Source of the DNA: Pseudomonas phage HHBS10_2
Length of the DNA: 50,031 nt
Sequence record: PQ287653.1
Direction: 5' to 3' (one strand)
In this document: positions 42,671 to 42,753 of the stretch, in pieces
Position numbering within the stretch: the stretch's first letter is position 1
How the letters are laid out: every line of letters starts with the position of its first letter
Program-made: the position numbers and the translations under genes
The notes under the pieces: generated by a model
Told to the model about the DNA's origin: nothing
Seen by the model: only the letters and a program-made list of their open reading frames with translations
Database searches by the model: none

Positions 42671-42753
42671 TGGCGCGGGAGGTGAGATTCGAACTCACAT
42701 TTTCAGCTCCAATTACCCTTATCAGTTTAGAAGACTGATGGGGCTACTCCCGC
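42671..42753 (-). tRNA. tRNA-like element: perfect 7-bp acceptor stem, canonical T-arm, encoded CCA, UCU (Arg) anticodon hairpin, but no recognisable D-arm
   Basis: GCGGGAG...GTGAG-TTCGAAT-CTCAC-CTCCCGC-G-CCA; hairpin AUCAGU-CUUCUAA-ACUGAU has U33-like U, UCU, purine 37. Confidence 0.4.

Follow-up and report, generated by a model that had tools for sequence, protein, structure and literature searches.

Pseudomonas phage HHBS10_2 carries a transfer RNA (tRNA) gene of unusual architecture: at positions 42671 to 42753 on the − strand of the 50,031-nucleotide (nt) stretch of DNA analyzed here (sequence record PQ287653.1; hereafter, the window) lies a gene of the tRNA-Arg(UCU) type that lacks the usual D hairpin, as an initial annotation had recognized. 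Covariation among relatives shows the anticodon arm of the predicted RNA to be nested inside two further helices, X and D′, between which the motif UAAUUGGA bulges out. The class to which the gene belongs is large and phage-specific, widespread, and mostly unannotated. We consider it probable, at roughly three chances in four, that this is a functional tRNA-Arg(UCU) gene, i.e., a working decoder of AGA (and probably of AGG too) for an AT-rich phage in a GC-rich host.

Read from 42753 down to 42671, the − strand gives GCGGGAG-U-AGC-CCC-AUCAGU-CUUCUAA-ACUGAU-AA-GGG-UAAUUGGA-GCU-GAAAAU-GUGAG-UUCGAAU-CUCAC-CUCCCGC-G-CCA. The acceptor stem, discriminator G, CCA, T-arm, and 6-base-pair (bp) anticodon hairpin with UCU listed in the initial annotation are all present in this reading, as are its two linkers, one of 7 nt from the acceptor stem to the anticodon hairpin and one of 22 nt from there to the T-arm. 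The parts of the gene are as follows.

42671..42753, − strand: whole gene, a rearranged-core tRNA-Arg(UCU) of 83 nt including the encoded CCA; 44.5 bits with Rfam RF00005 and 102 bits with the family model R1 (see below)
42747..42753, − strand: acceptor stem 5′ strand GCGGGAG; 7 of 7 pairs, with compensatory change at all 7 across subtype A
42746, − strand: U8, family-invariant (alignment A3); its RNAalifold partner is the invariant G at 42704 (U8·G in 25 of 25), a pair that is uninformative by itself because it never varies
42743..42745, − strand: helix D′ 5′ strand AGC (positions 9-11), partner of GCU at 42705-42707
42740..42742, − strand: helix X 5′ strand CCC, immediately next to the anticodon stem; partner of GGG at 42716-42718
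42734..42739, − strand: anticodon stem 5′ strand AUCAGU; 6 bp, with compensatory change at 4 of 6 pairs
42727..42733, − strand: anticodon loop CUUCUAA (C32 U33 U34 C35 U36 A37 A38), with the anticodon UCU at 42729-42731; read from the sequence
42721..42726, − strand: anticodon stem 3′ strand ACUGAU; covariation
42719..42720, − strand: AA, a bulge of 2 nt that separates the anticodon stem from helix X; unpaired in the consensus, and a spacer of 2 to 11 nt in other subtypes
42716..42718, − strand: helix X 3′ strand GGG; covariation in the 25- and 95-sequence sets
42708..42715, − strand: D-loop-like bulge UAAUUGGA, with putative equivalents of A14, A15, G18, G19, and A20/21
42705..42707, − strand: helix D′ 3′ strand GCU; covariation, and predicted independently by RNAalifold
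42699..42704, − strand: linker GAAAAU, ending in U (42699), which corresponds to position 48; this nucleotide is U in 95 of 95 A15 members, although left free in the search pattern
42682..42698, − strand: T-arm GUGAG-UUCGAAU-CUCAC, with canonical G53-C61 and T-loop; two compensatory double changes relative to the copy in phage PA11
42675..42681, − strand: acceptor stem 3′ strand CUCCCGC; perfect pairing with 42753-42747, and covariation
42671..42674, − strand: discriminator G73 (42674) and encoded CCA (42673-42671); read from the sequence

The evidence for the rearranged core comes mainly from the window's own subtype, A, of which alignment A3 holds 25 unique sequences. We scored a five-helix model (acceptor stem, D′, X, anticodon stem, and T-stem) in which positions 9-11 pair with the three nt after GGA to form D′, and positions 12-14 pair with the three nt before UAA to form X. 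Acceptor pairs were scored on A3 only, because a MAFFT alignment, A2, puts the acceptor 5′ strand out of register between subtypes. Across the 25 sequences, 97.3% of cells were paired, compared to 37 to 44% with slid partners; the covariation score was 0.83, versus 0.23 after shuffling (none of 500 shuffles reached 0.83), and compensatory change was found at 19 of 24 pairs. In D′, pair 10-50 was GC 22 times and AU 3 times, and pair 11-49 was CG (11), UA (8), UG (2), AU (1), or other (3). The middle pair of helix X was CG in 11 sequences, AU in 8, and GC in 6; in a larger set of 95 unique sequences, X was 98.9% paired and its middle pair took all four Watson-Crick forms (GC 38, UA 25, CG 17, and AU 15). 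Run without guidance, RNAalifold returned the same nested fold, plus the U8·G pair. Among copies in the genus Paundecimvirus, moreover, all eight stem substitutions keep pairing, including the two compensatory doubles in the T-stem.

Thus, the "spacers" of 7 and 22 nt pair with each other, and the initial description of the gene as having "no D-arm" holds only as "no D hairpin": it overlooked the helices that these spacers form and the D-loop-like motif that they carry, which follows the R15-Y48 and A20 rules described below. Two local hairpins were tried and rejected. A D-like hairpin inside the 22-nt segment (GGU-AAUUGGA-GCU) was 76% paired and a class-II-style hairpin (CCG-UAAU-UGG) was 64.6% paired; both lacked compensatory change and were equaled by shuffles.

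The tRNA covariance model RF00005 scores the gene at 44.5 bits, against a gathering score of 29 (E value, 2.5e-6), and is the sole Rfam family with a match within the 50-kb window; relatives score 35 to 44 bits. A covariance-model score had been put forward with the initial annotation as a test of the element, and it falls on the side of a tRNA. In the RF00005 alignment, the 13 D-arm positions are reduced to 3 nt (10 deleted), and there is a 20-nt insertion in the variable region. ARAGORN, proposed at the same time for use with and without mitochondrial models, made no call of the element: it found no tRNA in the window in default, -mt, -mtx, -mtd, -mtmam, -i, -ps, or -ps90 mode, and a call in -ps80 mode lies on the wrong (opposite) strand and looks spurious. 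The negative result in intron mode also argues against an intron-containing or split tRNA gene.

Features of a canonical tRNA found in the gene include a 7-bp acceptor stem, discriminator, and CCA, a T-arm with G53-C61 (invariant in 95 of 95 sequences) and a UUCRANY T-loop, and a 7-nt anticodon loop of the form Y32 U33 NNN R37 on a covarying 6-bp stem. A D-arm hairpin (a stem of 3 to 4 bp, positions 10-13/22-25) is absent from the gene, with just 7 nt between acceptor and anticodon arms. The tertiary-core nucleotides U8, A14, R15-Y48, G18G19, and A21 are all present and conserved, albeit in altered linear order. The bulge motif, UAAYUGGA, resembles a D-loop (A14, R15, G18, G19, and A20/21), and such a motif is kept in members found without fixing it (UAGCUGGA, UAGUUGGU, UAAUGGA, and others).

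Two rules of tRNA structure and recognition can be followed at positions that the searches left free. The first concerns position 48, the nucleotide immediately 5′ of the T-stem, which was unconstrained in our search patterns: members with A15 have U48 in 95 of 95 cases, and those with G15 have C48 (11) or G48 (4) and never U48. As judged from these sequences, the 15/48 covariation is the Levitt-pair (R15-Y48) rule; a G15·G48 pair is known in E. coli tRNA-Cys. The second concerns the nucleotide after G18G19, which, where left free, is A in all Arg members and U in all Ile and Thr members; a scan with U fixed at this position yielded Ile-type anticodons only, all with discriminator A. In the window gene, an A follows G18G19, and C35, U36, and G73 are present. 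The established identity set of arginyl-tRNA synthetase (ArgRS) consists of A20, its hallmark, together with C35, U/G36, and A/G73 (reviewed in PMC9976931). Adherence to both the R15-Y48 and the identity rules makes sense only if synthetases recognize these RNAs as tRNAs and the D-loop-like element folds near position 48.

The core varies across the family. Other subtypes have shorter linkers, and in long variants an extra helix crosses X. These long variants (84 to 89 nt; contigs L015 8792-8875, L019 3452-3540, L046 847-931, L089 521-608, and L102 1175-1260) pair the spacer after the anticodon stem with the linker after GGA in a covarying helix (GUC/GAC, AGGC/GCCU, CCUU/AAGG, or CACU/AGUG) that, because it crosses X, would form a pseudoknot. 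They are the only members that ARAGORN calls; we distrust the fold that it assigns to them, which has an out-of-register acceptor stem and a 2-bp "D-arm."

Relatives of the window gene were identified in several ways. BLAST found copies at 73 to 80% identity in the unrelated Pseudomonas phage Boevelstad, Salmonella phage SSBI34, Vibrio phage 1.101.O, and a 635-kb uncultured phage, three of which sit in a tRNA cluster. Scanning IMG/VR with the pattern CTTCTAAA...GTAAYTGGA...GTTCGA yielded 108 contigs, representing 95 unique sequences, all with an intact T-arm and an intact acceptor stem (6 or 7 of 7 pairs, sequence varying). The same pattern matched 13 times in ~185,000 bacterial and archaeal genomes, mostly on contigs of metagenome-assembled genomes; nine of these also match the family model, and a Flavobacterium match, inside an open reading frame (ORF), was dismissed as chance. 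One bacterial member, in the isolate Gellertiella hungarica DSM 29853 (L126 4371-4448), lies at the edge of an apparent prophage, from which we conclude that temperate phages of alphaproteobacteria also carry the class; it is flanked upstream by a Caudovirus prohead protease gene and downstream by host O-antigen genes and a tRNA-Pro gene. E. coli genomes gave no match to the window region. A BLAST search with the SSBI34 copy hit at least 251 cultured phage records (Felix O1-like, phi92-like, rV5-like, Klebsiella, and jumbo E. coli phages). In nearly all of them the site is unannotated; a few bear the label "tRNA-OTHER" or plain "tRNA," so some pipelines evidently detect rearranged genes as tRNAs of undetermined type.

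Across 116 members, 82 lie within 1 kb of other tRNA genes, and a canonical UCU tRNA is also present at just 9 loci. ARAGORN detects 5 of the 116 (missing 111, or 96%). The discriminator is G in 66, A in 32, and U in 18, and CCA is encoded in 43. A covariance model built from alignment A3, R1, scores members at 40 to 102 bits and canonical tRNAs at no more than ~30 bits. It revealed the same architecture with other anticodons: Arg UCG, ACG, CCU, CCG, and GCG; Ile GAU, UAU, and CAU; Lys CUU; and Thr UGU. Arg and Ile dominate, and contigs L029 and L039 each carry four or five rearranged genes. Members with these other anticodons are located at L037 7940-8018; L039 7349-7424, 10185-10265, and 11003-11080; L029 1601-1676, 2493-2571, and 8617-8694; L050 6041-6121; L096 2344-2420; L139 4535-4614; and in L152-L185.

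Well-studied phages are included: phi92 (L150 1199-1277), Antha (L148 599-677), whose gene is labeled "tRNA-OTHER," and FO1a (L151 699-777), which belongs to the Felix O1 species. The FO1a member scores 44.8 bits and sits unannotated in a gap between tRNA genes, flanked by two HNH endonuclease genes. According to the Felix O1 genome paper, AGA is over-represented in that phage and a matching tRNA was expected, but tRNAscan-SE found none (PMC3185647).

In the 635-kb uncultured phage (LR745206), a cluster of about 19 tRNA genes includes a rearranged tRNA-Arg(UCU) (L007 2496-2575) and, after a gap of 5 nt, a canonical one (2581-2652), so a single genome can carry both forms. The Boevelstad copy (L005 2499-2581) lies ~300 nt downstream of an annotated RNA ligase gene (1060-2190), a neighbor that may hint at tRNA damage and repair; no second tRNA was found in this 5-kb locus.

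The history of the gene is best seen among its closest relatives. The window region is 88 to 97% identical to its counterparts in Pseudomonas aeruginosa phages that belong to the genus Paundecimvirus (IME180, Ty, O4, PA11, TC6, and others), which makes P. aeruginosa the host; the initial annotation had spoken of enterobacteria. Near-identical copies of the rearranged gene occur in five independently sequenced phages. In O4 and DMTU_1, a canonical 77-nt tRNA-Arg(UCU), which ARAGORN finds and which is their sole annotated tRNA, occupies exactly the same slot, right after the same ORF (O4, L001 1840-1916). The flanks of the rearranged gene in the window and IME180 align with O4 up to the gene edges, and every stem sequence is different; since the stem sequences are unrelated, the change was a replacement and not decay or a mutated copy of the canonical gene.

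A third arrangement is present in PA11 (L009 1465-2083), TC6 (L010), and Ty (L004 1840-2461). These phages keep the first 26 nt of an O4-type canonical gene (the acceptor 5′ strand and the whole D-arm), followed by a ribosome-binding site, a 150-amino-acid (aa) HNH_3 endonuclease ORF (Pfam E value, 1.5e-8) and then the rearranged tRNA, whose start overlaps the 3′ end of the endonuclease ORF. The annotation of PA11 gp064 notes a similarity to T5 F-TflI, and the protein matches HNH_3. The stump and the rearranged gene do not form a split gene, as the acceptor strand of the stump, GTTCCGT, is not complementary to the CTCC(C/T)GC of the rearranged gene. In the simplest history, a cassette of HNH gene plus tRNA would have overwritten the canonical gene from about position 26 on, and the window lineage would subsequently have lost both stump and endonuclease gene, neither of which is present in the window or IME180.

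Phages T4 and T5 offer a precedent: a free-standing endonuclease gene (T4 segB; T5 F-TflI/II/IV) lies in or beside the phage tRNA genes and brings about gene conversion of the tRNA region of relatives, SegB being a homing endonuclease that cuts within tRNA genes and so drives inheritance of its own tRNA region (PMC2330249). Those tRNAs are canonical, however, whereas the presumed incoming cassette of the PA11 type carries a rearranged tRNA that replaced a canonical one; the window, for its part, has no endonuclease gene. Across the family, an HNH-like ORF lies within 100 nt of 11% of rearranged tRNAs versus 4.6% of canonical ones (about 2.4-fold), an enrichment that is suggestive of mobility but does not amount to a defining link. 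An obligate partnership with HNH endonucleases was rejected, since 89% of members, the window gene among them, have no HNH ORF within 100 nt.

What would such a gene do for the phage? The window is 44.7% GC; among its Arg codons, 22% are AGA (11.3 per 1000 codons overall) and 16% are AGG. P. aeruginosa is ~66% GC, and its use of AGA is very rare. From this codon use, the case of Felix O1 and FO1a, and the pair-preserving substitutions within Paundecimvirus, we conclude that the gene probably specifies a working AGA decoder; supplying a decoder for rare AGA, the purpose suggested in the initial annotation, remains the probable one. RNase P and 3′ trimming would release the RNA from a leftward operon transcript, the RNA would fold into an L-like shape with the bulge touching the T-loop, host ArgRS would charge it through A20, C35, U36, and G73, and the charged RNA would be used on the ribosome. 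Helix X may take the role of the D-stem: like positions 22-25, its 5′ strand adjoins the anticodon stem, and like positions 10-13, its 3′ strand runs into the D-loop.

Several observations weigh against a working decoder with this fold. The minimum free energy of the bare window transcript is −30.2 kcal/mol, compared to −26.7 to −27.7 kcal/mol for the covariation-supported fold, and the two folds differ. Helix X contributes about −4 kcal/mol and D′ almost nothing; D′ is moreover specific to the window's subtype, being without support in the larger subtype B, so that the core is not uniform across the family. The patterns used to gather the family set dictated the anticodon loop, the greater part of the D-loop-like motif, and some of the T-loop, and conservation at these positions is therefore no evidence; members are also related to one another, which inflates the shuffle statistics. 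Finally, an engineered tRNA lacking the D-arm could be used by E. coli only after the genome had adapted (PMC11551756), and function on a bacterial ribosome is therefore not to be assumed.

A broader proposal is one on which we are evenly divided. Working tRNAs of phages may include a large structural class, so far undescribed and made up mainly of Arg and Ile tRNAs with some for Lys and Thr, in which the D hairpin is topologically rearranged so that the anticodon arm is nested between the strands flanking the D-loop, the L-shape contacts (U8, R15-Y48, and G18G19/T-loop) and identity elements are kept, and unmodified bacterial machinery charges and uses the products. The rearrangement might be selected for removing D-arm sequence that is recognized by homing endonucleases or by host tRNA-targeting defenses, and the window gene would be an allele that displaced a canonical tRNA-Arg.

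The alternative that survives best, although we judge it improbable, is that of a tRNA mimic that does not decode: as a decoy or sponge, it might soak up a host defense nuclease or toxin that attacks tRNAs, or it might act as a regulator by binding ArgRS or some other protein that recognizes tRNA; the rearranged core would then keep the RNA off the ribosome. The noncanonical core itself fits such a role, as do the poor performance of the engineered D-arm-less tRNA in unadapted E. coli (PMC11551756), the RNA ligase gene beside the Boevelstad copy with its hint of tRNA damage and repair, and the canonical tRNA-Arg(UCU) copresent at 9 of 116 loci and adjacent in L007. In most clusters, however, the rearranged gene is the only UCU tRNA, and in Paundecimvirus the canonical gene was replaced, not joined. 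Acceptor stem, T-arm, discriminator, and often CCA are fully canonical, and in members with Arg, Ile, Lys, and Thr anticodons the identity elements fit the anticodon (A20 in Arg members; U20 and A73 in Ile members), as is expected of charged decoders and not of one decoy. The data are less easily reconciled with a tRNA-like element that is purely regulatory.

The initial annotation had also entertained a "degenerate" tRNA or a "fragment left by recombination." In its most specific form, this would be a damaged, nonfunctional tRNA gene that is carried along by HNH homing-endonuclease cassettes and owes its persistence solely to its youth or to that linkage. The position of the element in PA11, TC6, and Ty, right after the HNH_3 ORF that seems to have overwritten the canonical gene, the 2.4-fold excess of nearby HNH-like ORFs, and rejection by ARAGORN all agree with such a relic, but we strongly disfavor it and give it very little chance: all helices show massive compensatory covariation across unrelated phages of Pseudomonas, Salmonella, Escherichia, Klebsiella, Vibrio, and uncultured hosts, the tertiary and identity rules are retained, and the great majority of members, including that of the window, stand apart from any HNH ORF. 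Pairing of 97 to 98% with abundant compensatory change over more than 100 phage contigs likewise rejects a pseudogene or recombination fragment; the 26-nt stump of the canonical gene in PA11 and Ty is a true fragment, and it looks quite unlike the rearranged gene. Chance stems in an intergenic region, or an annotation or assembly artifact, have nothing but the silence of ARAGORN in their favor and are refuted by the Rfam E value, the near-identical copies in five independently sequenced phages, and the more than 100 covarying homologs.

Compared to known tRNAs, the window gene is closest to canonical phage tRNA-Arg(UCU) genes such as that of O4 and T4 tRNA-Arg, which are likewise presumed to decode AGA for an AT-richer phage in a GC-rich host. 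It shares with the O4 gene the loop CUUCUAA, a 7-bp acceptor stem, a canonical T-arm, G73, an encoded CCA, and the same slot. In the O4 tRNA, however, the D hairpin is normal (GCUC-AAUAGGAUA-GAGC) and the variable loop measures 5 nt, whereas the window gene lacks a D hairpin and has its D-loop-like motif 3′ of the anticodon arm, with motif flanks that pair with nucleotides 9-14.

Mitochondrial D-arm-lacking tRNAs also have no D hairpin and bear the anticodon loop on an extended helical stack, a likeness in which any shared UCU anticodon is coincidental. They differ in their short unpaired connector, degenerate T-loops, lack of the G18G19/T-loop elbow signature, and coevolved mitochondrial factors; the window gene has covarying paired connectors and a canonical T-loop, keeps GG, R15-Y48, and A20, and would have to function with ordinary bacterial factors. 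We therefore rejected a mitochondrial-type tRNA: the connectors are helices X and D′, and ARAGORN finds nothing in -mt or -mtd mode. Class II tRNAs and tRNA-Sec/allo-tRNAs resemble the window gene in having more than 20 nt from anticodon stem to T-stem, and ARAGORN forces the longest variants into a class II shape. Their normal D-arm and self-contained variable hairpin contrast with the window segment, which pairs back across the anticodon arm; with no D-arm and an unsupported candidate variable hairpin, class II was rejected as well. The engineered D-arm-lacking tRNA of Edelmann et al. (2024, PMC11551756) is similar in lacking a D hairpin and facing the bacterial translation machinery, but it is artificial and needed host adaptation, whereas the rearranged class is natural, widespread, and phage-borne and keeps the D-loop signature.

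We found no description of the rearranged architecture in the full-text open-access literature, although an older or paywalled account is possible. A 2020 review of naturally noncanonical tRNAs makes no mention of phages or viruses (PMC7609411), and the engineering study takes it as given that every known bacterial tRNA is a cloverleaf; if charged and used, the rearranged RNAs would be a natural counterexample to that statement for bacteria (PMC11551756). The D hairpin would then be rewirable without organelle-style coevolution of the translation apparatus, and phage tRNA inventories and codon-usage analyses would be systematically incomplete: the window phage would be annotated as tRNA-less, yet it has one tRNA gene, and the "missing" AGA tRNA of Felix O1 would be explained. 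The class would also offer synthetic biology a ready-made, evolution-tested noncanonical scaffold for orthogonal tRNAs, and it would make it possible to test whether homing endonucleases, or immunity that targets tRNAs, are linked to how tRNA structure evolves.

As for its surroundings, the gene lies in a run of small leftward ORFs and begins 8 nt after the stop codon of a 94-aa ORF; we saw no convincing promoter or terminator of its own around the element. A 60-aa ORF (42663-42481, − strand), which has no Pfam match, begins 8 nt past the CCA. The region of 42663-42481 (− strand) and 42367-42642 (+ strand) differs between window/IME180 and O4, so the variable patch reaches past the tRNA itself.

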